Positions 3,334 to 51,038 are shown, counted from the stretch's first letter. The stretch is 64,000 nucleotides of DNA from Vampirovibrionaceae bacterium NZW_1234 (GCA_041697335.1 JBGUGD010000030.1:176291-240290); one strand, 5' to 3'. Notes: generated by a model from the sequence alone, not told the origin. Made by a program: numbers and translations.

Positions 3334-4755
3334 TTAGTTAAAGTGACGGTTTCCGCTGTAGAGCTTGTTTATGAAGTAGGTACGGTTTTGGGCAATCATA
3401 TTGGCAAAATAGTTGGCCGCGCGAGCTTGGATTTTGCGATCGGGATTCAGTAATCCATTCAACGCACTTTGCGAGACACGCTGTTCCCGGTCGGCATGTT
3501 TTTCCCCAAAGGCATCTCGACGAGACAGTTCATAAGCGGTTTCCTCGGCGGCCAGAGCAATCAGCTGGGGAAGATCATCATGTTGGATTTTATCCATCAC
3601 AATTTGACGGATTTTGGGTCGCGCTTTGAAGAGGTCTTCCACACGTTCACGGAAGTTGCCGAATTGATGCGGGGATTCCTGCACCCGTTTGGTTGCGCCG
3701 GTGATTTTGGTGAAGAACAGAATACCCTTCAAGCGAGTTGAGAGGTTTGCTGACTCCAAATTCTCCAGCGCTTCTCGGGTTTGTTGCAGCACGGGAGGTT
3801 CTTCATCTGGCGCGGGGGCGGGTTGAGAAGGATCCTGCAAGGCCTTTATTTCGGCTAACTCACGTGAGGCGAGAAAAGCGGTTTGCGCAACATCCATGCT
3901 TTGAATGCCAAAGTAGCTGGCATGGCGTCTGAACTCAGCTTCTAATGCCTTAGGTCCTTTAAATATACTGTGGATCTGTGTCACGAAGTGGCGGAATCCT
4001 TTAATCCATTGCCCCGAAAAAGTGGTGCCTTGCTCGGGTGTTTCTTTCGCTGTAACGAGGAGAAATTTGGGATTGTTTTTTCGGGCTTGGGACTTAAAAA
4101 ACTCGGGATACAGCTGGGATAAATCACCGGATTTAACAAAAGCTTTCAGGAAAAATTGTGCGGCATCGGCTTGCTCATCCTTATCTTTGGATACCAGGGC
4201 ATTTAATTTGTCCATTAATAGAGGGTGTTGGAGTTGAAGAGGGCTGGCTTCACCGGCTTTGACTCCCAAGTCTACAAAGTGGAGAAAGTGGCCCACATGT
4301 TTTAAAAACCCTTTAGCTCCTTGCTGTTCATGGCGGGCCATCGGCAAGGTGGGCTCGTTCATCAGGTTGGTTAATGCCGCTTTAAACGGTTCGTTCTCAG
4401 CGGCAATCCGATTCAGTGTTTTGGTATAAAATTCCGGCGATTTGGCTTTTTTCAGGTGGTCCATCATGGTTTTGGCTTGGCTCACACCCTGGGCGATACC
4501 TGAAAATAAGGCCTTGATTAGTTTAAAGGGCAAAGCTATTAGCTCATAAATGGCAGAAAAGAACTGTTGAAGAAGCGATGGGGGATTTTGAGCCTGTGAA
4601 CTCTCAGTAGCGCCCGTCTTGGTGCGACCAGCAAAACGAATTGAATCAGCAGATGCAGCGGATAAGGTCACCTGGTGTCGGTTTGTCTGTTCAGTCAGGG
4701 TTGCACCAAGCATTCGGCTTGCGTAAGAGGGAGCCAGTCGAAGGGAGTCCACCAT
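3334..4755 (-). CDS. Hypothetical helical protein with RF[G/A/S]-type N-terminal leader
   Basis: Start moved to ATG 4755 (AAGGAA RBS upstream); leader ends SIRFAG; three weakly similar helical segments. Confidence 0.75.
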   Translation of the reverse strand: MVDSLRLAPSYASRMLGATLTEQTNRHQVTLSAASADSIRFAGRTKTGATESSQAQNPPSLLQQFFSAIYELIALPFKLIKALFSGIAQGVSQAKTMMDHLKKAKSPEFYTKTLNRIAAENEPFKAALTNLMNEPTLPMARHEQQGAKGFLKHVGHFLHFVDLGVKAGEASPLQLQHPLLMDKLNALVSKDKDEQADAAQFFLKAFVKSGDLSQLYPEFFKSQARKNNPKFLLVTAKETPEQGTTFSGQWIKGFRHFVTQIHSIFKGPKALEAEFRRHASYFGIQSMDVAQTAFLASRELAEIKALQDPSQPAPAPDEEPPVLQQTREALENLESANLSTRLKGILFFTKITGATKRVQESPHQFGNFRERVEDLFKARPKIRQIVMDKIQHDDLPQLIALAAEETAYELSRRDAFGEKHADREQRVSQSALNGLLNPDRKIQARAANYFANMIAQNRTYFINKLYSGNRHFN

Positions 4756-4883
4756 AGCATGTTCCTTGTTTCCTGAGGCGTGTACCGAGTATAACACCGC
4801 TCAAGATAACTTTGTGTCGTGTTTTTCGTGAAGCGTTACAGATTGTTAATCAAGTTCAGGAAAGGGTGGTGGTGCGGCGGTAT

Positions 4884-5906
4884 TTAACGTGATGGAGTAA
4901 CAGGTGTGTTTACCGCTTGAATAGCGGCCTCTAAAATTGGAATCAACTCGGTTTCCACTTGTTCCGGCGGCTTTGTAATCGTACAGCCCGAGGCCATCTT
5001 ATGTCCCCCGCCATTCCAACGTTCTGCAATTTCAGCCACGTTAATGCGGTGATCATCGCTTCGAAGGCTGACTTTGGTCATCCCATCCGGCGTTGCTTTC
5101 AGCAGAGCCGCGACACGAACCGTAGAAATGCGTCGTAAGATATCCACCAAACCTTCAATATGTTCATCGATGGCGCCGGTTTGTGCCAAATCCTCCCGTG
5201 AAATAATGACCCAGCTTAGGCTGTTGTCGGCATTGAATTTGGCTTTCTGTACACAGGTTGCATGGAGCAAGGCCTGGGACTTGGGCATCACATCATAGAT
5301 TTGTTTGAACAACATTTCAGGGTTGGCCCCGGCATCCACCAGATCGGCTGCTAAGCGGAAAATTTTAGATGTGGTGCTGGAATACTTGAACCCGCCTGTA
5401 TCCGTCAACAACGCGACGTACAAGCAAGCCGCCGTTTCGGGTGTCAACGGAATCTGGTTGGGGGTTAGAAGGTCTGCAACCACTTCCCCACTGGCAGCAG
5501 CTTGAGTATCAATGAGGTTAATATGCCCGAAGCGTTTGTTGCTGACATGGTGATCAATATTGATGGCGCATTTGGCACCCATAAAAAAGTGCTGTGAGCT
5601 GCCAAGGCGGTCTGGGGAGCCACAGTCCAGACAAAAAGACAGATCGTATTGTGCTAACAGGTCTGTTGCTGTATCCGGGTCTTTAATCTCGGACACACCG
5701 GGCAGGCCGTGATAGATATCCGGGATTTTGCCTGAAACAGCGGCATCAATAACGGTTAAATGGGGAAACGCATTTTTCAATGCATGCTTTAGACCCAACA
5801 TGGATCCCAAAGTATCACCGTCGGGGCTGACATGGGCGCACAGAAACACAGATTTGGCCTGTAAAATGGCTTCTTTAAATTGGGTAACTTCACTGGGTGT
5901 AATCAT
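4884..5906 (-). CDS. nrnA: DHH family bifunctional oligoribonuclease/PAP phosphatase
   Basis: HVSPDGD, IDHH, TDTGGF and GGGH motifs of DHH/DHHA1 proteins. Confidence 0.92.
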   Translation of the reverse strand: MITPSEVTQFKEAILQAKSVFLCAHVSPDGDTLGSMLGLKHALKNAFPHLTVIDAAVSGKIPDIYHGLPGVSEIKDPDTATDLLAQYDLSFCLDCGSPDRLGSSQHFFMGAKCAINIDHHVSNKRFGHINLIDTQAAASGEVVADLLTPNQIPLTPETAACLYVALLTDTGGFKYSSTTSKIFRLAADLVDAGANPEMLFKQIYDVMPKSQALLHATCVQKAKFNADNSLSWVIISREDLAQTGAIDEHIEGLVDILRRISTVRVAALLKATPDGMTKVSLRSDDHRINVAEIAERWNGGGHKMASGCTITKPPEQVETELIPILEAAIQAVNTPVTPSR

Positions 5907-6019
5907 CGGTCAGGTGGTCTTTACTGTTGGGTGGTTCCATGATGGATTACTGTCATGATAACGATGTCTGACGTAAACTGTTCAAGGGTCACCTATCGTG
6001 AGACAAGGATTATTCTGCC

Positions 6020-6976: not shown

Positions 6977-6990
6977 CGTATGAGGCTCTC

Positions 6991-16460: not shown

Positions 16461-17055
16461 ATTTGCTGGACGCCAAAGCAGACCTTATCTAAAAGCGGCT
16501 TTGTTTATTGGCTGCATCACCACGAGCCTTGTATTCGTTGGGTGTAAGCAAGACAAGGCCGTCTATCAACCTGCGGTGGCTAAGTTGGTTCAGTCTGCTG
16601 ATGCCCTGAAGAAAGCCAATCGTGTGGATGAAGCGATTTGCCGTCTTCATGCGGCAGTCGATATTTCTCCAGATACATTTCAGCTGCATTACAATCTGGG
16701 GGTATTGTATTCTCAGGCCAACAGATGGGCAGAAAGTGCTGCGGAACTTGAAAAAGCCGTGAAGCTATCGCCCAATGACCCTAATGCGTGGTATACCTTA
16801 GGCTATGCGTATACGGCCATGGGCGATCAGGCAAAGCGCCCGTCTCCTACAAATGGCTCTCAAGACATGGGTTCTGGACCACCTACGGGCCCTTCAGCTG
16901 AGATGTTAGCCATGGCACAGGCCTACTATCAGCAAGCCCTACAAGCATTTGATCGCTATATGGCTGTGGCCCCCCAGACCGATTCCGGACGGCAACAAGT
17001 TCAACAGCAAATGCGCTATCTTCAGGCACAATTAGGCCAAGCTGCGGCCCATTAA
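16453..17055 (+). CDS. TPR-repeat lipoprotein
   Basis: Lipobox VFVG-C; TPR motifs LHYNLGVLY and AWYTLGYAY. Confidence 0.82.
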   Translation: MGRFAGRQSRPYLKAALFIGCITTSLVFVGCKQDKAVYQPAVAKLVQSADALKKANRVDEAICRLHAAVDISPDTFQLHYNLGVLYSQANRWAESAAELEKAVKLSPNDPNAWYTLGYAYTAMGDQAKRPSPTNGSQDMGSGPPTGPSAEMLAMAQAYYQQALQAFDRYMAVAPQTDSGRQQVQQQMRYLQAQLGQAAAH

Positions 17056-19515: not shown

Positions 19516-21768
19516 ATGAGAATAGCGAACTTAACTTCAGGGAATATGTTGCAGCGCACCAATCGGGGTGAGCAAGGTACAAAAAAAGTGGCACAGGGTA
19601 AACTGGGGACTCAGTCTCCTTCGATGCCGACTGGCTATATGTCACTTTATGATAACGCTGGCCTTGCTGGGGTTCGATTCGGTGTTTCACTGAAAGGTGT
19701 TTTAAGTAAATTCACCAACGCTGAATTTGATATTGCAGGCACCATGGCGCTTGAGCGCGAAGTGCCCATGCTGGACTACCTGAATGAGGTGGTGGATAAA
19801 CCCGCTTTGCAGCGAAATACCAAACAGCGTATCTATGACATGATCACAGCCCGTGGAACGGACGATAAAAAAGTTCTGGGGCGTGAAGTGAAGACCTACA
19901 AGTTTTTTACCGAACCTGACAATCCTGATGATGCCTTATTAGGTATGGAAGAACAGCTTCATACTGTTGTTGAACATTTACAGCAAGCAGCTTTGGGGAC
20001 CGATGCCGGTAAAAAGCTTTTAATTCTGGTGGGTGGTCCTGGTAGCGGTAAGTCTACCGTCGCTCGGATTATTGTTCGAGGGTTGGAAAACTATTCTCGA
20101 ACTGCCGATGGCGAACGCTACACGCTGAAATGGAAGTTACCTAAAGATGTGGCTCGCGCCATTGGTTTTGATAAACAGGAGTTTGTGGAAGAGGTCTACA
20201 CTGATCCCGTCAAGCTGTTGCCTCTTGAAATGCGAAAAGATTTGGAAAAAACGTTAAACCGCAATAGCAAATTGCCCTATCCGATTAAGTTGTCCAAAGA
20301 AGGGTTACCACCGGCCTCTCAAAAGCTTTACGACAAATTGCTGGCGTATGAAATTCAAAATGGTGGTCAAGATGGTGCTTTTGAGCGAGTTCTGCAAAAA
20401 TATGCAATGGCCAAACGCTTTAAGGTCAGCTCTGTCCACCGGACCGGTTCGGGTAGCTTAGCCGCTGTTGATGGAAAGAGCTTAGACGTGACCCACATGT
20501 CCGGGGGCTCCAAAATGATTAAAGCGGCCACCTCCAGCGAAGGGGATCCGTGGGCCTATGATTTTGCCTCCGGTGAACTGTTTGCGGCTTCCGGTGGGGT
20601 CATGGAATTTATCGAAATTCTGAAGCTGGATAAAGAGCACTTGTTGCCCATCTTGACGCTGAACGAAGAAGGCAAGGTGAAGCCCTCCAAGCAGCCACAG
20701 GTGGAAGTAGACGAATTTGTTATTGCCCACACCAACTTGCCGGAATACGAAGCCAAGGCGGCTGATCCGGAAATGGCGGCAACCTGGGATCGGATGAAGA
20801 TCGTTCGCTTCCCCTACAATACGGCAATTAGCTCTGAGCAGGCCATCTATGAGCGCAGCTTGCCTCTCTTGCATCAGCAAGGTATCAATGTTGCTCCGCA
20901 TACGATGCGTACGGCTTCCTTGTGGGTCATCTTGAGCCGACTGCTGCCAGCCAAGGATCGGAAGTTTGATCCCTTGACCAAAGCCCGTCTTTATAATGGC
21001 GAGCCGAATAAAGATATCGGGATGGCCGAAATTCGGGCCCTGAAAAAAGAAGGTGTGAAGGGCCGTGAAGGGATGGAAGGCATCTCGCCTCGGAAATTGA
21101 AAGATAACGTTATTCCGGCAATTATGACGCATCCGGATGTTCAGAAAACCAAATCCATTGATGGTTATGGTGTTTTGACCATTATTCGGGATAAGTTGGA
21201 TTCCGGTGAAATTGAGTTGGAAGGCGAAGTGAAAGACAAAGCCTACCAAAACCTGGAAATTGCTTTAAAAGATTTGGATGAGCACGTGAAAGAAGATGTC
21301 ACGGAAGCCATTGCCGGGGATCGGGATAACCTCAATGCCATCTTGGATGAATACCTGCGTAACGTGGAAGCCTTTGTGGATAAGAAAGATGTGAGCGATT
21401 GGCGTGGGATTTCCTCTGGCCCCAGTGAACAGCTGATGCAATCCATCGAAAAGAAGATGGGGGTTTCCGACAATCGGACACACCGCCAAAAGCTGAATGC
21501 CATCTTAGGTTCCTATCGTCGTGATGGTAAGCCTATTGATCTGGATCTGTTCCCGGATATTAAAAAGGCCATTGTCCAACATGAGTTGGAACAATTGGAG
21601 CGCAACATTCCATGGAAGGCCTTGTGTACCACGGAGCCGTTGTCCACCAAGAAACAAGAAGATTATCGCCAGGGTGTCATTGGCAACCTGAAGAAAAAGG
21701 GGTACGACGAAGAGTCTGCACGTCACGCGCTGGCTCGGGTTGGTTCTCTGTTCAACACCAATAAGTAA
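19516..21768 (+). CDS. prkA: PrkA/YeaG-family AAA+ ATPase with N-terminal RFG leader
   Basis: Walker A GGPGSGKS, GVMEFIEILKLD, VIAHTNLPEY, FPYN, GMEGISPR, terminal KGYDEESA; leader ends GVRFG. Confidence 0.9.
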   Translation: MRIANLTSGNMLQRTNRGEQGTKKVAQGKLGTQSPSMPTGYMSLYDNAGLAGVRFGVSLKGVLSKFTNAEFDIAGTMALEREVPMLDYLNEVVDKPALQRNTKQRIYDMITARGTDDKKVLGREVKTYKFFTEPDNPDDALLGMEEQLHTVVEHLQQAALGTDAGKKLLILVGGPGSGKSTVARIIVRGLENYSRTADGERYTLKWKLPKDVARAIGFDKQEFVEEVYTDPVKLLPLEMRKDLEKTLNRNSKLPYPIKLSKEGLPPASQKLYDKLLAYEIQNGGQDGAFERVLQKYAMAKRFKVSSVHRTGSGSLAAVDGKSLDVTHMSGGSKMIKAATSSEGDPWAYDFASGELFAASGGVMEFIEILKLDKEHLLPILTLNEEGKVKPSKQPQVEVDEFVIAHTNLPEYEAKAADPEMAATWDRMKIVRFPYNTAISSEQAIYERSLPLLHQQGINVAPHTMRTASLWVILSRLLPAKDRKFDPLTKARLYNGEPNKDIGMAEIRALKKEGVKGREGMEGISPRKLKDNVIPAIMTHPDVQKTKSIDGYGVLTIIRDKLDSGEIELEGEVKDKAYQNLEIALKDLDEHVKEDVTEAIAGDRDNLNAILDEYLRNVEAFVDKKDVSDWRGISSGPSEQLMQSIEKKMGVSDNRTHRQKLNAILGSYRRDGKPIDLDLFPDIKKAIVQHELEQLERNIPWKALCTTEPLSTKKQEDYRQGVIGNLKKKGYDEESARHALARVGSLFNTNK

Positions 21769-21798: not shown

Positions 21799-23862
21799 AT
21801 GATACAGGTGTTGTATCGGAATCCGATTCATAATTTGCCTATGGCGAAAACCGTGAAGGTGCAGCGCCCTACAAAGGCTCTTCCTCAAGCGGTTGTTCGC
21901 TCCGGCTCGGCCTTGGCCAAGGTGTCCTCTGTGCCGCTTACTGCGACGCAATGGCAGGCCTATGTCTTGCCAAAATCCGATCGGCAAACCCGCTTTGGGA
22001 TGAACTCGGATATTTTCTCTCCCGGTGATATCCTACTGGGCGATCATCCTCCGGATGATGAGCTGGATGAGCTGGATGCGTCTCGTAAGTACCAGTGGGA
22101 TATTATGACCCGGTCTCGGCCCGGATTCCCTCAAGGATGGCTACAACCGGAAGATACCGTATTTGTGGTCACCGATCAGATGCGGATGATGCAGGCCAAT
22201 GCCCGAAATGGGTTTCCGCTTCGCTATAATCACTATAGCTGGGGTGAGGCCTTTAACCGGCTCTATCAAATGCAGGGCCATGGGTTGATGCGGATTTACG
22301 AAAGCGTCATCAATACCAAGCCTTCGGTTGCCTATTTGTTGGATTTCAATCCGGTCTATGCACAGAAGCTGGTTATCGGACACGTGTTTGCACACACCGA
22401 CTTCTTTAAGAATAATATCCGGTTCCAGGACTCGAACCGAGACATTATGCGAGTTATGGCCGACAATAAGCGCGCCATTGCCAAATATGCCTCTGACCCG
22501 ATGATTTTACGTAAAAGCGTCGGGAAAACCACCCCGGTGGAGCGGTTTATTGATGATTATAAGACGATGGAATGGCTCATTGACATGAGTAAATCCGCAC
22601 CGCCGCCACTAACCCCCTATGGGCAGGCAACGGATCCATCTACGGTGGCTCAGGTGGATTTGGACATGGGGTTAAGCCGTCAAAAACTTGGCTTGGGTGG
22701 CTTGATGCGAGACTTTATTGTCTCTGAAGACGAGCGTTCGAAAGCCGTAGATGATGCGCTGACCCGTCGGGAAAATCGAATCAAAAACATTCCGCCAGAA
22801 CCCACGCGAGATGTCTTGGGCTTTTTAATTCAGCACTCTAAGTCGCTTGAACCTTGGCAGCGGGATATTTTAACCCGTCTTCGCGAAGAATCGTACTACT
22901 TTGCTCCTCAGATTCAAACCAAGGTTATGAATGAGGGGTGGGCGACCTGGTGGCATACCCGAATGGGTGCTGAAGGGGTCTATAAACCGGATGAGATGGT
23001 TCCGGTTGCCAAGATGATGGCCGGTGGTGAAGCTCATGACCCTCAGGGGCTTAACCCTTATTTGGTGGGTCGCACCATTTTCCATAATATCTATGAAAAA
23101 GCGGGGCGGGGTATTCCCATTGATGTGCCCGAGGAAGAACTGGTTAAACGCTATAGTATTGATGAGCTGATGGCGCTGAAAAAGAAACCCATTGACGATG
23201 AGTTGGGCATCAAGGCCATTCAGCATGTGCGCAAATATGAAGATGATATGTCGTTCTTGCGCAAATATTTAACCGAGGACGTTGCCCGTGAATTGGGTCT
23301 GTACAATTACGAAGAGGTAACCGATTTCCGGGGTAATACGGAAGAGGTTGTGACTTCCAAAGATTTCAATGCGGTCAAATCTCGGATTCTTCAAAATTAT
23401 GACAATGGCGGTATGCCTATCATTGAAGTCGTCAATGGGGACTATCGCGGTCGCAGTGAATTGTTGCTGCGTCATGTCCATCTGTTCCAGGATCTGAATC
23501 GCAACGACGCCAAAGAGACGTTGAAATCGGTTTATCGGATGTGGGGTATGCCGGTTCACCTGGATACCTTCTACACCGCACCCGTGGATCCCAACCTGAT
23601 TAACAGTTTGGTTCAATCGATCCGTAATGCCCGACAATATGGCCAAGGCAAAGCCTATTGGCGTGGCAGTGAAAAGACGTTACAGGAAATGGAACAAGAG
23701 TTGCATAAACTGCAATCCAACAAGACGAAAGTCCCCATCCGATTCTCGACCGAAGATGGGAAGGATGTGTCCATTCGCGTCCTGAATGACAAAGGGGATA
23801 CCACCAAAAACTTCGATCCCAAAGATTTCGTGATTAAGGCAGACAGCGATTGGTATTGGTAG
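21799..23862 (+). CDS. spoVR: SpoVR/YcgB family protein with N-terminal RFG leader
   Basis: GFPLRYNHYSWG, IYESVIN, GHVFAHTDFFKNN, YFAPQIQTKVMNEGWATWWH, NPYLVG. Confidence 0.92.
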   Translation: MIQVLYRNPIHNLPMAKTVKVQRPTKALPQAVVRSGSALAKVSSVPLTATQWQAYVLPKSDRQTRFGMNSDIFSPGDILLGDHPPDDELDELDASRKYQWDIMTRSRPGFPQGWLQPEDTVFVVTDQMRMMQANARNGFPLRYNHYSWGEAFNRLYQMQGHGLMRIYESVINTKPSVAYLLDFNPVYAQKLVIGHVFAHTDFFKNNIRFQDSNRDIMRVMADNKRAIAKYASDPMILRKSVGKTTPVERFIDDYKTMEWLIDMSKSAPPPLTPYGQATDPSTVAQVDLDMGLSRQKLGLGGLMRDFIVSEDERSKAVDDALTRRENRIKNIPPEPTRDVLGFLIQHSKSLEPWQRDILTRLREESYYFAPQIQTKVMNEGWATWWHTRMGAEGVYKPDEMVPVAKMMAGGEAHDPQGLNPYLVGRTIFHNIYEKAGRGIPIDVPEEELVKRYSIDELMALKKKPIDDELGIKAIQHVRKYEDDMSFLRKYLTEDVARELGLYNYEEVTDFRGNTEEVVTSKDFNAVKSRILQNYDNGGMPIIEVVNGDYRGRSELLLRHVHLFQDLNRNDAKETLKSVYRMWGMPVHLDTFYTAPVDPNLINSLVQSIRNARQYGQGKAYWRGSEKTLQEMEQELHKLQSNKTKVPIRFSTEDGKDVSIRVLNDKGDTTKNFDPKDFVIKADSDWYW

Positions 23863-23871
23863 GGGTGACGT

Positions 23872-25662
23872 ATGATTATTAATCAACTTGGACAATTCAT
23901 ACAGAAACCGACAAACACGGCTCGCCCCAGTGTTTCTCGGCGACCTGTGATGCCTGCGCTGAACCAGGATCTGTTTCAAATCTCCAGAGCGCAATCGGGC
24001 CAGAGTCGGCAAGTTCGTTTTTCGGGCGATGACGATGGCATGACCGATCCGGATACCAAGCGTTTCTGGGATATTGTCAAAGGTGTTGAGACGCCGGAGC
24101 ACTTGCTGGATCAAATTACCCGAGGCGGTTTAAAAATTGGCCAGGATGGTGGTGTGACGTTGCCGATGCCGACCATTAACCGCCCCACGTTCTCTTATAA
24201 ACCCAATAGCGATAGCAATGATGATGGCGACGGCGATGGCGATGGGGATGGTCAAGGTGGACCAGGACAAGGCCCCGGTAAAGGTGGCGGTGTTGGGAGC
24301 AATCCTGGTGCCGGACCAGGTGACGTCATTGGTCAGGATGGCGATGGCGAAGGTGATGGCCAAGGTGGCAAAGGTGCTGGCCAAGGCGGTGGTGGTGGTG
24401 GCCGTGAAAAATGGGAACGCCGCCTCACGGGAACCGAAGTTGCGAAATTGCTTGAGCAATTGGAACTCCCCTATTTGCAAGACAAAGGGCGGGGCCAGTT
24501 CCAACATGCCGGAATTCGGTGGAATAACAAGCGTCAACCGCCGCCGGGGATCCCGCTCAGAGAGTCGTATGATCCGGCCATTGCACGTGAAACATTCCAC
24601 GTGAGTCAGGAACAAAAGAAGTTTATTGGCGAGCTTTATCAGGTGGCCTTTGGGCGAGAGCCTCAGGATGACGAGCTGGATTATTGGAAAGACGTACTCA
24701 AGGAGCTTGAGGCGGATAACCAGATGGATCTGGAAAACGTTGAGCCGTTGTTGATTGGCGAGTTTTTAACCTCGGAGCAGTATCAACAGCAGTTTGGCGG
24801 CAAAACCGATAAGATGATTTCGGATGCCTACAAGCTGGCCATCGGCAAAGCGCCTTCTCGTCATGGGATTGAACTCTGGAGCAGCAAATTGGAAACCGGC
24901 TTAACGGTTAAAGATATGCCGCTTGCGCTTTACCAGATGTTTGGCGACAAGATGGACAGCCGACGTCGGAATATCGTTTTTAATCCCGATAATCTGATTA
25001 TTGCACCCAAGGAAGTGCGACGCATTGACTGGAAAGAACACAAGAAGCCTTTTTCTCAGGCCGTTATTTTCTATGTCATGGATGTTTCCGGATCCATTTC
25101 CGATCAGGATAAAGAAATGGCCCGGATGAACAACTACTTGCTCTCGACCTGGGTGAAATACCAGTATGGTTTGAAAGTGGCCAAGATGCAGGGCAAAAAG
25201 TACAACGACAAAGAATTTTTCGGCAAAAGTGTCGCTGAGCGTCATATCATTTTTACCGAGACTGCCAAAGAAGTGGATGCCGATGAGTTTTACACCACCT
25301 CTCAATCCGGTGGAACCAGTATTTCATCGGGGTTGAAGATGGTCGAAGAGATTATTGACAAAGATTATCCGCCCAAGGATTGGAACGTGTATGTGTTTGT
25401 TTATAGTGACGGGGACTCTTGGAGCGACAACGATAAGTCCGTCAAGATTATTCAGGACTTGGAGAAAAAAGGGATTAATCTCATGGCATACGGTCACTTA
25501 GGGCAACGAAGCAGCATTTCCGGCAGTAATTTTGCCAATGTGCTCAATGAAAAATTCAAGGAATCCAAGACCGTGCGTCTTGCTGTCCTGGATCGTCCTG
25601 AGATGAAAACCTATAAAGAAGCCATAAAAGCCATGTTGGCGAAAGAGAAGGAGGCTGTGTAA
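23872..25662 (+). CDS. yeaH: YeaH/YhbH (DUF444) vWA-domain protein with leader and inserted DUF4214-like domain
   Basis: Gly/Asp-rich linker, LELPYLQDKG, MDVSGS MIDAS, SGGTSISSG, YPPKDWNVY, SDGDSW; leader ends QVRFSG. Confidence 0.88.
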   Translation: MIINQLGQFIQKPTNTARPSVSRRPVMPALNQDLFQISRAQSGQSRQVRFSGDDDGMTDPDTKRFWDIVKGVETPEHLLDQITRGGLKIGQDGGVTLPMPTINRPTFSYKPNSDSNDDGDGDGDGDGQGGPGQGPGKGGGVGSNPGAGPGDVIGQDGDGEGDGQGGKGAGQGGGGGGREKWERRLTGTEVAKLLEQLELPYLQDKGRGQFQHAGIRWNNKRQPPPGIPLRESYDPAIARETFHVSQEQKKFIGELYQVAFGREPQDDELDYWKDVLKELEADNQMDLENVEPLLIGEFLTSEQYQQQFGGKTDKMISDAYKLAIGKAPSRHGIELWSSKLETGLTVKDMPLALYQMFGDKMDSRRRNIVFNPDNLIIAPKEVRRIDWKEHKKPFSQAVIFYVMDVSGSISDQDKEMARMNNYLLSTWVKYQYGLKVAKMQGKKYNDKEFFGKSVAERHIIFTETAKEVDADEFYTTSQSGGTSISSGLKMVEEIIDKDYPPKDWNVYVFVYSDGDSWSDNDKSVKIIQDLEKKGINLMAYGHLGQRSSISGSNFANVLNEKFKESKTVRLAVLDRPEMKTYKEAIKAMLAKEKEAV

Positions 25663-28394: not shown

Positions 28395-29671
28395 CCGTTG
28401 CTCTGACCCCAGTGAATCAGTTTGTGTCCTCACGTTTATTGGCCAGTAAAGGGGGTGTTTCTCCCAAGCGGCCTGTATCCCGCCAGCCGCGTTTTGCCGG
28501 TCAATTCAGTCAGCCAGTAACGGCACCGGTATCCAATCAGCAATTGGTGTCGGCGCTCAAGGGCCAGGTTAAGTTTGGCTCCTTGGGACAACTGATCAGT
28601 ATTGCCCCGGGGTATAAGTTGGGTGAAGCTCGGGCAGCTCATAACCAGCCCCTGAATCGGATGCCCAGCATTATTTTGGAAAGCGCCACCGGCGATAAAA
28701 TCGCGATCGATCCGGTTTCGGCCAATTTTGAGCGCAATATTATCGAGTTTACCGAAGATTTTAATCAAGACTCGGCTCGCGCCTTTAATGCCCAGGTCGA
28801 TTTTCTGAAAAACAAAATCCTGGATAAACGTGCTAAGGGCGAAATTAAAGACCCCAGTGAAGAAACGGTTCATATTTACATCAATAGCCCGGGTGGGATG
28901 ATTATCTCGCTTTATGCCATGATCGATGCTGTTGATACGTTGAAAAAAGCCAATATCCCCGTGGCTACCTACTGCCGTGGCATGGCTGCCAGTTGCGGTT
29001 CGGTATTGTTTGCCCTGGGTACTCCCGGCCAGCGTTATATGACCCCCCATGGGCGTGTTTTGGTGCACCAACCGTTGGGTGGAAGTTATGGTCAGGCAAC
29101 GGATATCGGGCTTCAGAACGAAGAAATTCAAGAGATGAAAATTAAGCTGACCGATATTTTGTCCCTCTCTGCGCTGGAGGGCAAAATCATTCGATTGCAG
29201 AAAGAAGTGGATCGCCTGTCGGAATCCGAAAATCAGTGGTCCCCGAATGTACAGGCCCGGCAAAAGCAAATTGCGCAATTTGAGGCGGAGAAAGTTCGGA
29301 TTCGTAAAACCCAGGAAGCTCGCACTCAACAGAAAATTTACATTACCCAGGCCGAAATGCTGAAAGCAGAAGACCGGAGTCAAGAAGCCGAAGAGGCCTT
29401 GGCTAAAGGCCAAAAGCTCGTAACCGATACCATTGCAGCCGTCACCAGCGAAGCCCGTGAGCAGGAGCGTCAGCGTTTAACCGAGGTGATTGCCAATTCC
29501 GATGGTGCGACGAAGACTACGGCAGAACGAGAATTGAGACGCTTGGATGATCGCAAGGTCCCCTATAGCTCGACTCGCGAACGTATGGCCCAAGTCATGG
29601 AGCGCGATCGCTGGTTGACTGCTGAAGAAGCCGTTGAGTACGGCTTAGCGGACGGTATTGTCACCCGCTAA
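28391..29671 (+). CDS. clpP: ClpP-family serine protease with leader and large coiled-coil insertion
   Basis: IYINSPGG, GMAASCG (Ser), VHQPLGG (His), ERDRWLTAEEAVEYGLAD (Asp); ATGA overlap with upstream gene. Confidence 0.88.
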   Translation: MTVALTPVNQFVSSRLLASKGGVSPKRPVSRQPRFAGQFSQPVTAPVSNQQLVSALKGQVKFGSLGQLISIAPGYKLGEARAAHNQPLNRMPSIILESATGDKIAIDPVSANFERNIIEFTEDFNQDSARAFNAQVDFLKNKILDKRAKGEIKDPSEETVHIYINSPGGMIISLYAMIDAVDTLKKANIPVATYCRGMAASCGSVLFALGTPGQRYMTPHGRVLVHQPLGGSYGQATDIGLQNEEIQEMKIKLTDILSLSALEGKIIRLQKEVDRLSESENQWSPNVQARQKQIAQFEAEKVRIRKTQEARTQQKIYITQAEMLKAEDRSQEAEEALAKGQKLVTDTIAAVTSEAREQERQRLTEVIANSDGATKTTAERELRRLDDRKVPYSSTRERMAQVMERDRWLTAEEAVEYGLADGIVTR

Positions 29672-37560: not shown

Positions 37561-39828
37561 TTGTTCGTGATAGTCCCTGTACATCACGTCCCGGCACAAT
37601 CAAGTGTTGTCCCCCCGAAAGCAAAAGGCTACGGGTACCCGCCAAAACACACCTATCTCCCAGCAGTTCAACACAATAGCCTATTTACCGCCCCCCGATT
37701 CGGGACGGATAAGGAAGTGCATCGCACTGGGGAGACGAAGTTTATTCATGTCTTGCAACATGCGGCAGCCCCCTTTCGAGAATTGCTGCAAGGGCTCGCA
37801 TTGGCGGTTCGCCGTTTTGGTCAATGGTTGGGCAATGTCTGGTTTCGGATTATGCGCATGGTGTCTCCGGTTTCGGTGCCCCAGCTGCGTGATGCTCTCA
37901 ACCCGTTGATGGTTCAAGCTCAACATCGGTTCCCCATTCCCATGGTTCGTGCCAAGCTCCTCAAAGAAGGGTCGCCGGATGCGCTTTTGCCCTATCGGGA
38001 GTTGGAGCGCCGCTATCGGCGGAATCCGGAGCAGCGGGTACGCTTGCTGGAAAACTTTGTGACCTCCGAAGCCACGGCTTATTTGGCCAGCCATCTGCTG
38101 GCCTTGCAGGAAGCCATCCGAAATCCGGGCCAACCCCTGCGGATTGATCGAAGCCACATCCCCGCGGCGGTTCGGATGGGGGTGGATGATGCCAATGCCA
38201 TCGTGGCCCGGCGCACCAAAGAATTGCTTTATGCCAAGGACAAGCAGCCCATTGCGGACAACCTGTATAACCTGATTCTGGAGTCACCCAAGGTGGCCTT
38301 GCACGAGCATTATCGTGGGTGTGCGCCCATGGCCATGGTGCGGGCGTGGTTTATGGCCCAGAATGACCCCATTGCCTTTAAGTCCAATGATGAGTTGGAA
38401 GAATACTGCCGGATTGATCGTCTGTTTACCCCGGACGGCGAGGGCCCGCTGTATCAACCGAGTTTGGATCGATACCGCTGGAAGAACGACAATATCGTCT
38501 CGGTCTCCATTAATTCAACGGAGACGGCGTATATGGCGGCCTATATGTATACCCTTCGTTCCGGGTTGGAAAATGTCCGCTACTTCGAGTATCGCCTAAA
38601 CCCCATCAGTAAAGGGGTAAAGGACTCTATCGCCTACGCAAAGGCCATCCAGCAGGGTATTCACGATGGCAAGATGTTTCTCAAGGAATCTCGGGGGCAG
38701 GATATTGATGCCAACCTGATCTATTCCGCCGACCGGCAGCCCAAACCCGGGGTGGAGGTGAACAATCCGCTGGCGCCAAAGATTGATGATCGGATTTGGC
38801 TGGCGATGAAGATTATTGTTCTGGCCATCAAGTCTCGTCTGATGGGGATGCATGTGACCGGGTTTGATGTTCAGGGCTCTGAAGCCAACTACGCCATTAT
38901 GGACTTTGAACCCGTGGCTCGGATGCTGGCCCGTTGGAATCGGGTGGCCAAGGCCATGAACCAGATGAAGATGCCGGGCTGGGAGAAGGACTACCGTGTG
39001 GGTGCAACGCTTCACTCGGGTGAAACGCCACTGTCCGGCTTGATTAGCCATAAAGATGCGCCCATTACCGGGGCCGAATCTGTGGAGCGTTCCGTGGAGC
39101 TGTTCACCCGGAAGGACACCTCGCCCATGAATCTGATGGCCGTGGGGCAGGCGATTCAACAGTTACTCAAGACCCCGGACACGCAACTGGATGACGCCAC
39201 CACCTTACGGGTCATCGATCTGCTGTTGCCCAAGGAGGACCGACGGAAACTGGGGACAAGTCGCGGGGCCTTGAAAGCCGAATCCCAGGCCATGCCTGCG
39301 CCCAATGAGCTGCCCCCGGATCAGGACCCGGACATTGATACCCCGGTGCGCATTGGCCATGGGGTGCAGCTGAAGTTCGGGCCGCGTTGGTTGATTGATG
39401 CCTGCTGGAAGCACAAGATTGGGTTTGAACAATGTCCCAAGAGCAATGTGCAGACCGGGGCCGTGTCCTACTATAACGAATTGCCCACCCTGGTGATGTC
39501 TCGTCCCCGGGACGAGGGCCACGGGTTGATGGTGTCCATCAGCCGCGATAACGGGACGACCTCCAAGACGAATATGCCCAACGAACTGGTGAAGTTGACC
39601 CGTCACCTGAAGGCCCGTCACGAGGATCGCAAGCGCTTCCAGATCAACGGGATTCAAACGGCCTTTCTCTTTGACCCGGAGCTAAAGACCAAGATTCGCC
39701 AGGAGATGTTACAGCGCTTCCACCGTCTGGAGTCTCGCCCGGCTTATGGTGAAGTCATTCGTCACGAGCAGGATCCACGTCTGTTTAAGCGGCTGATTGA
39801 AAATCGCCGGGGGGCTCACACGGCCTGA
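37561..39828 (+). CDS. Adenosine/AMP deaminase-superfamily protein with RFG leader and N-terminal extension
   Basis: PKVALHEHYRG, VRYFEYRLNP, TLHSGET, RIGHG, EQCPKSN, ISRDN motifs; leader ends APRFG. Confidence 0.8.
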   Translation: MFVIVPVHHVPAQSSVVPPKAKGYGYPPKHTYLPAVQHNSLFTAPRFGTDKEVHRTGETKFIHVLQHAAAPFRELLQGLALAVRRFGQWLGNVWFRIMRMVSPVSVPQLRDALNPLMVQAQHRFPIPMVRAKLLKEGSPDALLPYRELERRYRRNPEQRVRLLENFVTSEATAYLASHLLALQEAIRNPGQPLRIDRSHIPAAVRMGVDDANAIVARRTKELLYAKDKQPIADNLYNLILESPKVALHEHYRGCAPMAMVRAWFMAQNDPIAFKSNDELEEYCRIDRLFTPDGEGPLYQPSLDRYRWKNDNIVSVSINSTETAYMAAYMYTLRSGLENVRYFEYRLNPISKGVKDSIAYAKAIQQGIHDGKMFLKESRGQDIDANLIYSADRQPKPGVEVNNPLAPKIDDRIWLAMKIIVLAIKSRLMGMHVTGFDVQGSEANYAIMDFEPVARMLARWNRVAKAMNQMKMPGWEKDYRVGATLHSGETPLSGLISHKDAPITGAESVERSVELFTRKDTSPMNLMAVGQAIQQLLKTPDTQLDDATTLRVIDLLLPKEDRRKLGTSRGALKAESQAMPAPNELPPDQDPDIDTPVRIGHGVQLKFGPRWLIDACWKHKIGFEQCPKSNVQTGAVSYYNELPTLVMSRPRDEGHGLMVSISRDNGTTSKTNMPNELVKLTRHLKARHEDRKRFQINGIQTAFLFDPELKTKIRQEMLQRFHRLESRPAYGEVIRHEQDPRLFKRLIENRRGAHTA

Positions 39829-43042: not shown

Positions 43043-44338
43043 GTGGTTATTGCGTTCAACTCGGTTAAACCCTTTTCAGCCGGCTCTGCTACTCGACCTG
43101 TGGCAACGCCCGTGTCATGGGCTTCCTCGTCCCAGCGCCGGTTTGCATCTCAAACATCGACAGATTCTTTACGACTCTCTTCGTCACAGTCCACGAATTT
43201 ACTTCAAAAATACGGCATTGATCCCGAGCGGGTGTCCGTGACCTCCTGGGATGATCGGGGGTTGGATCCTGACTTGGCAACAGCGATCCACCGTCAGAAA
43301 GTCACCTTGATCACCCATGCCCTTGAAGCCCACGAGCTTGCCTTAAAACACCAGGCCCTAGGGAACTACTCCAACGATTATCGGGCCACGCATATTTCAC
43401 TGAAAAACGGCACGACCGCCATGGCGACCAACCTGGAATTGAACGAAGGTAAATCTACGCCCTGTGGCGAGCGTTCTGCGGTGATTGCTGCCGTGAATCA
43501 GGCGATTCGGGCGCTGCCTTTGGCTCGGCTGCAGCAGGCCAGCGGTTCTGATATCGCAATGATCAGCGAGGGCTTAAAGGCCAATGTGTTGGTGATGGCC
43601 ACCAGCAACCTGAAAGACTATGCGGAAGTATGCTCCGATTGTGAAACCTGGATGGCGGATAAGAAACTGTTTTCACCGGATACCCTCTTTGTCAGTCTGG
43701 GGCAAACCCCTCACGGAGCCTTTTCGTTGCGGGTTCAACGCTTGATCGATCGGATGCCCCGATGGGGCAAACAGCACCCTTCCGTGTTTACCGACGGCCA
43801 GACCTTTGAAACAGCCAATGTTGACCCGCTTCTCTCGAAACGGGCTCAGCAGGTGCTGGCGGCCAAACCCTACTTGGTTTCCCAGGTGCAGCCGCTGCTT
43901 CAGCAAGCCAAGGCCGAATTCGATGCCAACCGAACGGCATGGGCGCCCGAGCGTAATACCGCTGCTGCTGTGATGCTGTCCTCCAGCACGTCTACGTTGC
44001 CGACTCTTCACCGCTATGCGGCCCCTCTTTTTAGCTGGAAGCGGCGCTGGTATGAAGCGCCGGATTTGCTCGCGGCCAGCTGGGGGTATCAGGATTTAAC
44101 CAACCGCTTGCAGGCCCAGGATGTCCGAATTCAAGCTGTGGCCTATTATGGAAACGATTCCCAGTTCCCGCTGCCCACCAATTTGGGACGTCTGGCCCAA
44201 GCAACCCGAGGCGGGCTGGATACCTTGGTGGTGGTCCTTGAGCATAACCGGATCCATGTCAGAACGATTGCCGATTATCTCCCTCGGACCTCTGTTTCCA
44301 ACGGCACGCCTGGCTCCTCCAACCGGTCTTATGCCTAG
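43043..44338 (+). CDS. Cytidine-deaminase-like protein with leader and degenerate second domain
   Basis: ATNLE...PCGERSAV...VCSDC zinc-deaminase motifs; leader contains QRRFAS. Confidence 0.68.
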   Translation: MVIAFNSVKPFSAGSATRPVATPVSWASSSQRRFASQTSTDSLRLSSSQSTNLLQKYGIDPERVSVTSWDDRGLDPDLATAIHRQKVTLITHALEAHELALKHQALGNYSNDYRATHISLKNGTTAMATNLELNEGKSTPCGERSAVIAAVNQAIRALPLARLQQASGSDIAMISEGLKANVLVMATSNLKDYAEVCSDCETWMADKKLFSPDTLFVSLGQTPHGAFSLRVQRLIDRMPRWGKQHPSVFTDGQTFETANVDPLLSKRAQQVLAAKPYLVSQVQPLLQQAKAEFDANRTAWAPERNTAAAVMLSSSTSTLPTLHRYAAPLFSWKRRWYEAPDLLAASWGYQDLTNRLQAQDVRIQAVAYYGNDSQFPLPTNLGRLAQATRGGLDTLVVVLEHNRIHVRTIADYLPRTSVSNGTPGSSNRSYA

Positions 44339-48120: not shown

Positions 48121-48138
48121 TTTACAAAACGTTACAGG
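48121..48138 (+). promoter_or_regulatory. HLR1-like direct repeat upstream of malQ
   Basis: TTTACAAA-AC-GTTACAGG. Confidence 0.45.
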
Positions 48139-48176
48139 TTGGGGTCTCTAAGCCTTCTGCTTGGGGGCGTTTTGCC

Positions 48177-49139
48177 TCAAGGTGTGTCCTCATCGGGGCT
48201 GTCTTTCTCCATGGCCTCGGCCTGGTCCCGAAGGGCTTGGGCTTTTTCCCGCTTATTCTGGGCTTCAAGCAGATCGGCCAGCTGTTCCATCGTGCTTTTC
48301 AGGAACGTGCTTTTGGGGTGCTGCTTCAACAGCAGGTCTAATTCATCTTCTGTTCTGGCAACCCAGTATTCCGACGCGGTGTAGGCTTTTTCATAGTCGT
48401 CATTATCATCGGTGTTGACAGCAATCTGGTAATGGGTTTTGGCCAAGAGATGCTTCAAATCCAAGGTGTGGAAGTTGGCCGGTTTTTTTTGCTGGTTATA
48501 GGTTGCTAACGCTTCTCGAAAATGTGCCAGTGCGGTTGGATGTTCTTCTCGGTTCAAGGCAATTTTGCCTAAGCCGGTATTGATATCCGCCCAATAGGGG
48601 TAGAGCTTTTTCTGGAAGACCCCGCGTTCCTTGCCGGTGGGGTTCATGGTTTTTTCTGCGGCTGTCAGAAGTTGCTCGGCTTCATCCCAGTTGTTTCCGG
48701 AATTGATGAGCATTAAGGCCAACCAGGTTTGGGTACGGGCTTTGCCCAGTGGATCATTCAGGCGCCCTTGGGGCTGGTAGAGTTCCAGGGCCAAGTCAAA
48801 ATGACGGCGGGCTTCCTCATAGCGTCCTAAAGCACTACAGGCATTGCCTTGAGACTCCAGGGTAATCAGGTGGTCATTGTCGTCGTTGGTGTCGGTATCA
48901 TCCAAAAATTCCTTGGCCTGGTAATAGGCGCGCAAGGCTTCGGTATAGTTTCGCTTTTCGTAATGCACATGGCCCCGATCCAGATGATTGCGCCACAGGG
49001 CCTTAAAGGCTGTGTTTGCCCCAAAGCGAACATACGAATCACTCTGGGATGGCGCCGCCGACGAGGGCCGTTCTGGGCTCGTCCTGGGTGTTTTGGGTTT
49101 GATGATTGATTGACCTGGTAAATGAAACCGAACCTGCAT
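48177..49139 (-). CDS. TPR protein with RFG leader
   Basis: Kinesin-light-chain-like TPRs; GGAGGAG RBS; leader ends SYVRFGA. Confidence 0.82.
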   Translation of the reverse strand: MQVRFHLPGQSIIKPKTPRTSPERPSSAAPSQSDSYVRFGANTAFKALWRNHLDRGHVHYEKRNYTEALRAYYQAKEFLDDTDTNDDNDHLITLESQGNACSALGRYEEARRHFDLALELYQPQGRLNDPLGKARTQTWLALMLINSGNNWDEAEQLLTAAEKTMNPTGKERGVFQKKLYPYWADINTGLGKIALNREEHPTALAHFREALATYNQQKKPANFHTLDLKHLLAKTHYQIAVNTDDNDDYEKAYTASEYWVARTEDELDLLLKQHPKSTFLKSTMEQLADLLEAQNKREKAQALRDQAEAMEKDSPDEDTP

Positions 49140-49250
49140 TGCCCGTAGTACTCCTCCCGACCATGGGCTTATTGTACAGAAAGCGCTGGCCGAGGGCAGA
49201 GAGGTGTCTGTCGGAATCGTTACAAATATTTATACGAAGCCGCGGCGGGA

Positions 49251-51038
49251 TTATTCGGTGGCCTGAGAGGAGGGGATGCGAGAGGCCATTTGTCGCAGTT
49301 CGGTTTCGGTATGCTTGTCGCCTTGTAATACCGAGATTTCCGCCAGTCGCTCCAGGAGATCTTTTACAAAGCCGCTTTGGGGATCGTCCTTCAGGACGGC
49401 TTTCGCGTCCTTGATAGCAGCGGCCATATGGGCTTCAGCCTCTTGGGTCAAGGTATCATATTCGTCTTGTTGGGGACTGGCATTGGCTTTTTGCATCAAC
49501 GCTTCTGCCAGCAGGGTGCGAAGCTCCGCGGAATTGGTGGTGCCGTCATGGCCCATTTCCTTTTCGCTGGTCAGAGCCACATGAAAATGCTCTAAGGCTG
49601 ATTGTGAGTCATTTTGGGTTAAGGCAATCCGCCCCAATCCGTAGTTGACGTCGGCCCAATGCGGGCAAAGCTCACCGTCCTGATGCCTGCCATCTTTCAT
49701 ACCGTCGGTTGTCATTCGCCGATACAGATCCTGAAGCATGGGGGCTGCTTCGGGATGATTGGCATCCCAGTCCAGATAAACCAAGGCCAAGCGAGTTTCG
49801 GTATCCATCCTCTCCCAAGGTTTGCTCTTTGCTTGCGTGTGAATGGCTAAGGCCTGCTTTAAGTGGCCTTCTGCCAGTTCAAACTTATGCGTATAGCGGC
49901 TGGCTGTGGCCAAGCGATGCAGGGTTTTGATCAAGGGCCTCTGCTGGGCTGGGTCTGTGGGATCCAGAAGCTCTAAAGCACCTTTGTAGATGAGATAGGC
50001 TTCTTGGTACCTGTGCTTATTCATTTTCTTTTGAGCCGCTTCCAGGCGCTCGGACCATAGTTCCGGCATCAGGTGATGGTATTCGGCTACCTGGCGGGCC
50101 AGGGGAATAACCTGCTCTGTTTTGCAAGGGAGCTGAAGGTCCGCCTCAATCTCTGCCATTTCATCGAACATGTAGCATGTTTGTCGGTTAGCCACGCCCA
50201 AGAGATAGAAGCCGTTAAAGTCGGCAACGGCAGCCTCAATATGGCTTGCCGCCGAGGCTTTATGCTGCTCTGCCTGGAAGGGAGATGCTTGAGCCTGCTG
50301 TGCATGGATGGTTGCTAATAAATAATGCAACCGGAAAGTCTCTTTGGAAGAGTTCTCCCCCTGCTCGAGTCGGCTTTTTAATGCTTCCGTGGTGAATTGT
50401 TGGGCTAATGCCAAGTCACCTTGATGCAACGATAAGCGGCCTAGACCTTCATGCAAGATGCTCCAGCTGGGGTGTCGGTGGTTGCCTTTGACTCCGTGGG
50501 TGTAGCCTTCTTGTGTCAACGTGGTGAACGCTTCACGCAAGAGTCGGTTGGCTTCAGCGTAGCGCTTTGGGCTCCAGTGAAGATATAGAAAGCCAAGTTG
50601 AGCTTGTGTTTGAGCCAACGTGGTTTTTTGGACCCGCGACCCGAGGTTGTGTTGGAGTTGCAGCGCGTGTTTAAAATGACGCTCGGCTTCTGCAAAGCGG
50701 TTGGTTTCCCGGCAGACTTCTCCTAAGGCATTGAGCAAGCTGACATGACGCTGGATCTTGGGAAAATCCGGGCGGATTCGATCGTAGGCCCGTGCCAACA
50801 TGACATAGGCCTCGTTTGGAGAATATTTTTTGAGATGGTCGTGGGCTTGTTTAATGGTGTGGCGCAGATGTTTGTAAAATTGATTTTCCTCTGAGCGAGC
50901 CTGCTTTTTGCGTTCTGCACGGTTGGGTCGCTCTGCGGCAAAACGAAGTGGCTGAAGGGGCGTTTTTTCGGTGCTCAAGTAAGCCTTAGGTGGGCGTTCT
51001 TTGGGTTTTGAAATGGCTCCGATGGGAATGAGGGGCAC
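49251..51038 (-). CDS. TPR protein (two modules paralogous to the neighbour) with RFA leader
   Basis: AAGGAG RBS before GTG 51038; leader ends QPLRFAA; shared WAD[IV]NxGLG[KR]IAL motif. Confidence 0.82.
   Translation of the reverse strand: MPLIPIGAISKPKERPPKAYLSTEKTPLQPLRFAAERPNRAERKKQARSEENQFYKHLRHTIKQAHDHLKKYSPNEAYVMLARAYDRIRPDFPKIQRHVSLLNALGEVCRETNRFAEAERHFKHALQLQHNLGSRVQKTTLAQTQAQLGFLYLHWSPKRYAEANRLLREAFTTLTQEGYTHGVKGNHRHPSWSILHEGLGRLSLHQGDLALAQQFTTEALKSRLEQGENSSKETFRLHYLLATIHAQQAQASPFQAEQHKASAASHIEAAVADFNGFYLLGVANRQTCYMFDEMAEIEADLQLPCKTEQVIPLARQVAEYHHLMPELWSERLEAAQKKMNKHRYQEAYLIYKGALELLDPTDPAQQRPLIKTLHRLATASRYTHKFELAEGHLKQALAIHTQAKSKPWERMDTETRLALVYLDWDANHPEAAPMLQDLYRRMTTDGMKDGRHQDGELCPHWADVNYGLGRIALTQNDSQSALEHFHVALTSEKEMGHDGTTNSAELRTLLAEALMQKANASPQQDEYDTLTQEAEAHMAAAIKDAKAVLKDDPQSGFVKDLLERLAEISVLQGDKHTETELRQMASRIPSSQATE

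Follow-up and report, generated by a model that had tools for sequence, protein, structure and literature searches.

What can ten proteins of largely unrelated families share when each carries an N-terminal extension that ends in Arg-Phe and a small residue? This question arises from a stretch of 64,000 nucleotides of Vampirovibrionaceae bacterium NZW_1234 (GCA_041697335.1 JBGUGD010000030.1:176291-240290; hereafter the window, that is, the whole stretch analysed), for which a preliminary description had proposed a shared RF[GAS] leader as an export or targeting signal, for example for delivery into a host or prey cell. The leader is well supported as a lineage-specific, Sec-independent sorting tag by its N-terminal enrichment, the exclusion of Sec signals, its conservation in orthologues, its position ahead of the folded domain and a shared putative promoter element, which agrees with the proposal of a tag. 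Judging from sequence comparisons, it would probably be an export signal read by a second, flagellum-type type III secretion system (T3SS2) and used by a large, partly co-regulated set of proteins. The window corresponds to positions 176291-240290 of contig C5 in our genome set (G000:C5:176291-240290), the genome itself being 3.70 Mb in 41 contigs and 94.75% complete. Going by its named relatives, this non-photosynthetic relative of the cyanobacteria belongs to the class Vampirovibrionia and probably to the order Vampirovibrionales. All genome-wide counts given below are based on 3055 genes called with our own hexamer and Shine-Dalgarno (SD) script.

The N-terminal leader and its gene set

Among the N-terminal 3-mers of the proteome, RFG is the most strongly enriched (163 against 31 expected, z 23.7). 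Indeed, RF[GAS] lies within residues 4–70 of 211 of the 1875 proteins of at least 240 amino acids, against 61.4 ± 7.3 in 100 shuffles (maximum 76) and 68, 74 and 68 in internal and C-terminal control segments, so the predicted N-terminal enrichment is confirmed. Using a model that combines a position weight matrix (PWM) with composition, leaders were assigned to 244 of the 3055 genes (score of at least 8, false discovery rate of about 5% as estimated on internal pseudo-starts), i.e., to about 8% of the proteins. The PWM over these genes gives [ST]-S-[PVLIT]-R-F-[GSA]-[SAG] as the consensus at the leader end. Leaders contain 12% Ser, 10% Pro, 8% Thr, 8% Arg and 3% Asp plus Glu, have a net charge of +3 and are not helical; the enrichment in S, P, R and T and the scarcity of acidic residues are thus as described, but the Lys and Gln also named are not enriched. 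The leader length of 30–65 residues holds within the window, but genome-wide the motif Phe lies at positions 5–77 (median 21.5). At the very start, residue 3 is I, L or V in 114/244 leadered against 579/2605 other proteins, and L, I, V or F occurs in positions 2–5 in 223/244 against 1805/2605.

The eleven motif positions claimed for the window all translate as stated, and the ten genes that carry them score between 7.5 and 13.0 in the same model:

3334..4755, minus strand: orphan protein of 473 residues, RFAG at 4627-4638 (F41); score 10.4, no Pfam or NCBIfam match, SD site before the ATG at 4755
19516..21768, plus strand: PrkA (AAA_PrkA and PrkA C-terminal domain), RFG at 19675; score 7.5, start uncertain
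21799..23862, plus strand: SpoVR, RFG at 21991; score 11.2
23872..25662, plus strand: YeaH/YhbH (DUF444), RFSG at 24016; score 11.9
25665..28394, plus strand: long PrkA paralogue, RFSA at 25827; score 11.5
28391..29671, plus strand: ClpP with two motifs, RFAG at 28490 and KFG at 28571; score 11.8
37561..39828, plus strand: adenosine-deaminase-domain protein, RFG at 37696; score 11.8, start uncertain (TTG)
43043..44338, plus strand: orphan, RFAS at 43139; score 10.3, no family match, a leadered paralogue exists
48177..49139, minus strand: tetratricopeptide repeat (TPR) protein, RFGA at 49017-49028; score 13.0
49251..51038, minus strand: TPR protein, RFAA at 50934-50945; score 8.4, GTG start with an SD site

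The PrkA at 19516, just below the cut-off and therefore excluded from the 244, is the first of an operon of five genes, every one of them leadered, in which the leader starts abut or overlap the preceding stop codon. The leadered ClpP apparently has its catalytic Ser, His and Asp motifs (by eye), and ClpP paralogues without leader are found elsewhere in the genome. The label 'CDA-like' given to the orphan at 43043 is not borne out, since it has no Pfam or NCBIfam match. The control genes said to be leaderless score below 0, except for the biotin carboxylase reading frame (6.3), which has an apparently false upstream start. Two further loci of the window contain related features. The csrA-fliW pair lies at 53541-54290 (a leadered CsrA-like protein is found elsewhere, at C25:9629), and a TPR protein at 16453-17055 starts with MGRFAGR followed by a lipoprotein-like signal, its RF at position 3 being uncounted as a leader.

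An origin of the pattern in start mis-calling or composition has to be considered, as our gene caller is simple and the 244 genes include likely false positives (FliW, NuoB-like and ObgE-like proteins, picked by eye). The FliW of the window (53790-54290), with a score of 9.6, is probably such a case, given what we take to be the canonical FliW start. However, an SD site stands at a start ahead of the motif in 184/244 genes, against 11/116 downstream ATGs, which supports starts that precede the motif. Together with z values above 20 against shuffled and internal controls, the conservation in orthologues and an independent DNA element, this refutes an artefact for the set as a whole, and its probability is negligible. 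Moreover, the motif codons vary synonymously with a usage near the genome average, therefore placing the motif at the protein level and ruling out a DNA or RNA repeat behind RFG. A search of the window against Rfam gave no match, and a search of the ESM Atlas with the leader gave no usable match.

The leader lacks the hydrophobic region (h-region) of Sec signals, as had been noticed: a Sec-like h-region occurs in the first 35 residues of 1/244 leadered proteins, against 412/2605 others. By regular expression, a Tat-like signal was found in 2/244 and a lipobox in 0/244 leadered proteins, i.e., without enrichment. After the RF motif, an h-region is found in 15/244 proteins against 3/206 controls, and bipartite leaders with Tat-, Sec- or lipoprotein-like signals in this place occur at G000:C10:63584-65095, C14:63058-63864, C8:48499-51537 and C17:11018-12145. 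Leadered proteins with a leaderless paralogue in the genome number 49/244, and in 34 of 35 stricter leader/leaderless pairs the homology begins after the Phe of the motif, as expected for an added leader.

In orthologues, the leaders are unalignable and the motif persists. The YeaH orthologues of family f3 have x-F-G ahead of the domain in 8/8 cases (by eye), PrkA orthologues retain one to three x-F-[GS] motifs, and two ClpP relatives also have repeated motifs (3/5 non-self matches viewed); for f2 and f3, the motif evidence comes from orthologues. Long PrkA homologues, which form one clade, carry the motif in 21/42 cases against 7.9 expected, and 105 mostly leaderless PrkA homologues in 2 against 1.5 expected (2/149 rows were dropped for want of a start Met). 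In relatives, Phe can be preceded by R, K, H, Q, S, T or N, and the core is therefore phi-x-F-(x)-G, with phi a hydrophobic residue. Note that f9 genomes (L015-L019, L025, L026) have an ordinary leaderless YeaH beside an aldehyde dehydrogenase, and some of them also have a leadered PrkA-YeaH-SpoVR operon. In the window's own genome, neighbouring proteins (L028, G000:C9:90331-93939) are made up of 'FKPGQVKV(D/V)' units that recur between spacers rich in Gly and Pro.

Leader genes cluster (77 adjacent against 36.6 ± 7.3 expected), and part of them share an upstream DNA element. GCAATTT is enriched before them (33/244 against 5.6 expected), and the full element, GCAATTT-N6-TTGAG-N4-5-TTT[AT][AT], lies about 50–140 nt before the start. 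In two-fold cross-validation (score of at least 9), it was recovered for 26/122 and 29/122 held-out leader genes, against 43 and 34 of the 2605 others, that is, on about a quarter of the leader genes with an enrichment of about 15-fold. Its shape and position suggest a promoter. Element-positive genes without an RF score carry variant motifs in 20/53 cases against 211/2613, so that the true leadered set may, by extrapolation, be near 300–350; a Sec signal was found in 0/53 of them. In the f7 genome G030, a similar element, captured with a regular expression written post hoc, precedes 3/7 leader genes against 1/193 others.

A second flagellum-type apparatus

The genome encodes two FlhA. One set of genes makes up a complete flagellum (C2, C4, C23, C25, C26), and the other belongs to T3SS2, listed here with its associated sigma genes:

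G000:C32, L033:8784-20950: main cluster, flgF2-flgG2-flgB2-flgC2-slt-fliE2-fliF2-X-fliH2-flhA2-fliI2
C8:66046-69792: fliM/N-like-fliO-fliP2Q2R2 (fliO labelled by eye)
C29:178730-180600: flhB2 and a FliA-like sigma
L283:2661-3359: the FliA-like sigma beside flhB2, below all curated subfamily cut-offs
C30:50562-52826: fliJ-like and fliK-like genes (labelled by eye) and a rod/hook-like gene (third rod/hook-like protein)
G000:C16:18950-19630: second FliA-like sigma paralogue, below all curated subfamily cut-offs

In genome G001, the C32 and C30 gene sets are joined in one cluster. A second FlgA, FlgH, FlgI, FlgD or FlgK was not found in the genome of the window, nor P and L rings, cap, junction proteins or flagellin separate for T3SS2. 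A single FliG-C serves a genome with two export gates, and neither of its two MotAB pairs lies within the T3SS2 loci. In a FastTree phylogeny of 70 sequences (midpoint-rooted, so that the order of origin is not readable from the root), the FlhA2 sequences branch on their own (support 1.0), outside both flagellar FlhA and injectisome SctV, and split into subclades A (f1-f4, f7) and B (f6, f8, f9, f11); FlhA2 also falls below the cut-offs of both FlhA and SctV (model TIGR01399). FlhA2-type matches (42–77% identity), with relatives titled Gastranaerophilales or Melainabacteria, occur in at least 114 of the 118 class genomes outside f5/f10, and among the matches listed there are none for the 32 f5/f10 genomes. 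The f7, f8 and f9 genomes, in which FlhA2 is the sole complete gate, keep it alongside rod genes, and flagellin (0/53), FliG-C (0/21), MotA (0/21) and FlgI (0/5) were not found in them; T3SS2 is therefore not a motility organelle. T3SS2 is an old paralogous system coexisting with a full flagellum.

At the autocleavage motif of FlhB2 (L283:2167-2571), the usual NPTH is replaced by NPIH, and in relatives by NPVH or NPDH. Protein X (385 aa, L033:14371-15528) occupies the fliG position of the operon; it is conserved in subclade A, is modelled as all-helical (pLDDT 70.8) and has no match in Pfam, NCBIfam or the PDB (Foldseek, E 0.001). It is not assigned to FliG (similarity not significant by hhalign, probability 2%, with weak Atlas leads to FliG_M/N clusters at 0.78–0.79), and protein X is a candidate sorting-platform or reader protein. 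Right after fliI2, two small paralogous genes of no known family (L033:8784-9689) are candidates for a chaperone, needle or tip. In f7 genomes G024, G030 and G005 (L272-L274), a fused protein of 490–505 aa joins a coiled-coil-like N-terminus to the cytoplasmic domain of an FlhA, which is nearer to that of FlhA2, and could possibly be a soluble substrate receptor. The sigma factor encoded next to flhB2 shares 69% identity with proteins that carry the names Vampirovibrio chlorellavorus and Vampirovibrionales; it was found in 79/101 genomes and in 0/20 of f5/f10, and its gene adjoins flhB in 4/4 other FlhB2 loci. The second sigma paralogue occurs in 38/41 subclade-A against 0/38 matched subclade-B genomes.

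Partial flagellar sets of this group are not new. Di Rienzi et al. reported a flgG-flgG-flgC-fliF-fliH-flhA-fliI-flgE cluster and a second flhA in ACD20 (PMC3787301), and a secretion role was postulated for flagellar genes of Gastranaerophilales (bioRxiv 10.64898/2026.04.24.720558). The sets in these accounts (PMC3787301; PMC5877343; bioRxiv 10.64898/2026.04.24.720558) comprise the same genes as T3SS2, earlier read as flagellar or as decay. What is new here is a paralogous second machine beside a full flagellum, with its promoter and sigma links and a candidate substrate signal. In the accessible literature on Vampirovibrio, Melainabacteria, Vampirovibrionia and Gastranaerophilales (subscription papers not covered), the leader, the promoter and the second machine are undescribed.

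Leader and machine

The preliminary description had compared the leader with type III and flagellar export signals, and this comparison gains a concrete candidate reader in a second, non-motile flagellum-type apparatus, although the spacing and form of the flagellar motif are not reproduced. Like the signals of early flagellar substrates, the leader is an N-terminal, Sec-independent signal with a key Phe, a candidate reader of the FlhA/FlhB type and a small hydrophobic residue within positions 2–5 (223/244), and the cognate gate, ATPase and ring components are encoded (second FlhA, FlhB, FliPQR, FliI, FliH, FliF and FliE). In contrast, the leadered proteins are enzymes and not axial subunits. 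The N-termini of injectisome effectors are disordered, Ser/Pro-rich and acid-poor. The leaders are likewise disordered and acid-poor, and T3SS2 has a flagellum-derived export gate and no motor; unlike injectisome signals, they have a sharp consensus on about 8% of the proteome, while FlhA2 lies outside the SctV clade and T3SS2 keeps the rods FlgB/C/F/G, FliE and a FliF-type ring. By the tests made here, the leader would work like a type III export signal, yet outside the families of the flagellar gate recognition motif (GRM) and of the injectisome. Myxococcus xanthus, a contact predator of bacteria, has an atypical, needleless T3SS* required for prey lysis (PMC12075869); in the FlhA phylogeny, SctV-type sequences of Archangium group with the injectisomes and not with FlhA2, and no substrate motif is described for T3SS* in the accessible part of that paper.

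The motif was looked for in relatives with DNA samples of 80–290 genes per genome. With the orthologues counted in, it was seen in subclade A (f1, f3, f7), where the second sigma also occurs, and was not above shuffles in f5/f10 samples, which are without T3SS2. In the f7 genome G030, phi-[SNT]-F-x-G occurs in 9/191 genes against 2.2 ± 1.4 in shuffles; this pattern was selected post hoc, and the patterns tried before it gave nothing clear in any relative. That the motif accompanies the machine is thus shown in part, as it was seen in f1, f3 and f7 but not in f6, f8 and f9.

Besides this choice of pattern, a number of observations weigh against reading by T3SS2. In f6, f8 and f9 (FlhA2 subclade B), the motif was not above shuffles in samples of 160–190 genes. 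Pooled loci anchored mainly on machine genes gave no significant enrichment (16/183 against 8.8 ± 3.0, maximum 18; 7/339 against 3.9 ± 1.9), the T3SS2 structural subunits are without the motif, and the upstream element (score of at least 9) was found on no T3SS2 operon and on none of the ten window genes. The lytic transglycosylase of the operon was rejected as a bridge between motif and machine, its RFS not being kept in orthologues. Half of the long PrkA homologues (21/42) are without the motif, and F-G occurs in 1/5 leadered f9 YeaH copies. Moreover, the Phe lies before residue 20 in 109/244 leaders and at residue 30 or beyond in 93/244, and position F+4 is hydrophobic in 48/244, which does not fit the FxxxPhi form that we take to be the GRM consensus and of which FlgD is an example. 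In early flagellar subunits, the two-part signal combines an N-terminal hydrophobic signal with a GRM that needs 19–24 residues of spacing (PMC8983047). Co-distribution counts were taken among kin and are not independent evidence, nothing was found that ties the leader directly to the machine, and the outer-membrane passage of T3SS2 is unexplained. As regards subclade B, leaders without F-G do occur there, and a de novo motif search in its samples gave nothing convincing.

An export signal read by another route, such as the motility flagellum, a type IV pilus or secretin system or another transporter, would be compatible with this lack of a direct link, with the subclade-B genomes that have T3SS2 and in which the motif was not seen, and with the secretins found in 5/5 genomes tested (two in this genome, none seen in the T3SS2 loci). 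We nevertheless consider it quite improbable. Secretin routes need Sec or Tat signals, which the cargo lacks, and secretins are also present in f5, where the motif was not seen; in f7, a related motif occurs and flagellin, FliG-C, MotA and flagellar FlhA were not found. TssC of the type VI system and a contractile sheath were found in 0/5 genomes. In a type IV secretion model proposed for V. chlorellavorus, hydrolases would be delivered on contact by way of a pad and a spike (PMC4451040). VirB4 (PF03135) was found in 0/81 FlhA2-lineage genomes, that of the window included, and a type IV system therefore cannot be the general reader. For T3SS2 itself, a needle and translocon were not identified, these families not having been searched.

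Cargo, recipient and significance

Among the 244 leadered proteins, 54 chosen from gene clusters were scanned together with the ten window proteins; 25/54 have a Pfam match and 29/54 have none. The matches include proteolysis and AAA modules (FtsH-like AAA+M41, M16 peptidase, ClpB-D2-like AAA), metabolic enzymes (malate/lactate dehydrogenase, citrate synthase, aldehyde dehydrogenase, enoyl-CoA hydratase, amylase) and others (Nudix, Ppx, EEP nuclease, diacylglycerol kinase, CheR, a receiver domain, a sigma-54 activator). Leaders are also present on sigma-like and CsrA-like proteins. Since the enzymes of the cargo need ATP, NAD or CoA, the periplasm would be an unlikely destination. Both sigma-54 activators of the genome are leadered (RFG, and an RFTG variant with a score of 4.8), the leader being joined directly to the AAA domain:

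L300:1014-2279: leadered sigma-54 activator without regulatory domain
G000:C13:152128-153825: leadered sigma-54 activator without regulatory domain

With two models, RpoN was not found in this genome at its 94.75% completeness. Four f9 genomes likewise have tandem-AAA sigma-54 activators, and RpoN was not found there. That both activators are leadered while RpoN was not found hints at a bacterial rather than an algal recipient, although sigma-54-independent action or leftover cargo would also be possible, and the starch enzymes among the cargo would suit an alga as well. Delivery into a host or prey cell, as first suggested, would thus fit a cargo that points to another cell, more bacterial than algal.

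The tag could also act in the cytoplasm: a protease or adaptor of the cell itself would recognise it as a degron or pro-peptide carried by the proteins of a stage-specific regulon, and T3SS2 would be a separate trait that is merely co-inherited. The cargo does look cytoplasmic, a shared promoter means co-regulation and not export, and the T3SS2 genes have neither motif nor promoter. We regard this explanation as rather unlikely, given the near-total exclusion of Sec signals, the duplicated enzymes beside leaderless housekeeping copies (49/244), the signal-peptide-like segments after the leader in some cargo and the leaders on both sigma-54 activators although the search for RpoN found none.

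Plastid transit peptides and mitochondrial presequences are S/R-rich and acid-poor and end before the mature domain. Mitochondrial R-2 cleavage sites and the mimicry of transit peptides by effectors are also known, and RF|[GSA] might mainly be a cleavage or organelle-import signal used after delivery into an algal or protist host, with export driven by the rest of the leader. The place of the motif at the leader/domain boundary and the S/R-rich, acid-poor composition with a net charge of +3 agree with this, but an amphipathic presequence of the mitochondrial type is not supported (helical moment 0.493 against 0.488 ± 0.009 shuffled, 126 leaders) and the leaders contain 10% Pro. In relatives, Arg is replaced by K, H, Q, S or N while F and G form the conserved core, the leadered paralogues resemble the genome's own bacterial enzymes, and we know of no eukaryotic partner for sigma-54 activators. 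This alternative is unlikely, even with starch enzymes in the cargo and a relative, V. chlorellavorus, that preys on Chlorella (PMC4451040).

T3SS2 could instead stock a compartment of the cell's own (a daughter cell, a resting body or a feeding outpost), for which the SpoIIIAH-SpoIIQ channel of sporulation offers an analogue. The cargo would come close to self-sufficiency, with components for several core functions (PrkA-YhbH-SpoVR, ClpP, FtsH- and ClpB-like ATPases, citrate synthase, malate dehydrogenase and sigma-like proteins), and T3SS2 lacks a P ring. However, with RpoN not found, the sigma-54 activators would be without partner in any own compartment, and no such compartment is described in the accessible passages of the literature, which makes this very improbable.

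Under the favoured reading of the leader as a T3SS2 export signal, its form would be M-x-[ILV], a disordered S/P/R/T-rich and D/E-poor stretch and phi-R-F-[GSA]-small, or more generally phi-x-F-(x)-G. A T3SS2-linked FliA-like sigma would turn the cargo genes on at contact with a host or prey; the unfolded leader would enter the gate, its Phe docking on a gate component or chaperone; and proteases, AAA ATPases, nucleases, amylases, extra tricarboxylic acid cycle and nucleotide enzymes and transcription factors would be exported via T3SS2 into a compartment outside the own cytoplasm that contains ATP and NAD, most simply another cell. Going further, T3SS2 might represent a third, independently derived type III lineage that injects some 250–350 Phe-Gly-tagged proteins, many under one promoter class, into other bacteria; the prey would be reprogrammed by sigma-54 activators that act constitutively, by sigma-like and CsrA-like proteins and by modules for proteolysis together with extra central-metabolic enzymes. 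We hold this to be a tentative possibility.

Type III signals usually lack a consensus; with so sharp a motif on about 8% of the proteome, the substrates could be predicted directly from sequence. In gut and environmental Melainabacteria, the 'incomplete flagella' would then be a secretion machine in its own right, and the flagellum would have been exapted a second time, besides the injectisome. For predation by Vampirovibrio, this would stand as an alternative to the type IV model; the cultured V. chlorellavorus holds the T3SS2-linked sigma. A need for a host cell may also explain why most of the class resists culture. If interbacterial injection is true, much of the class, including the common gut Gastranaerophilales, would be contact parasites or predators.

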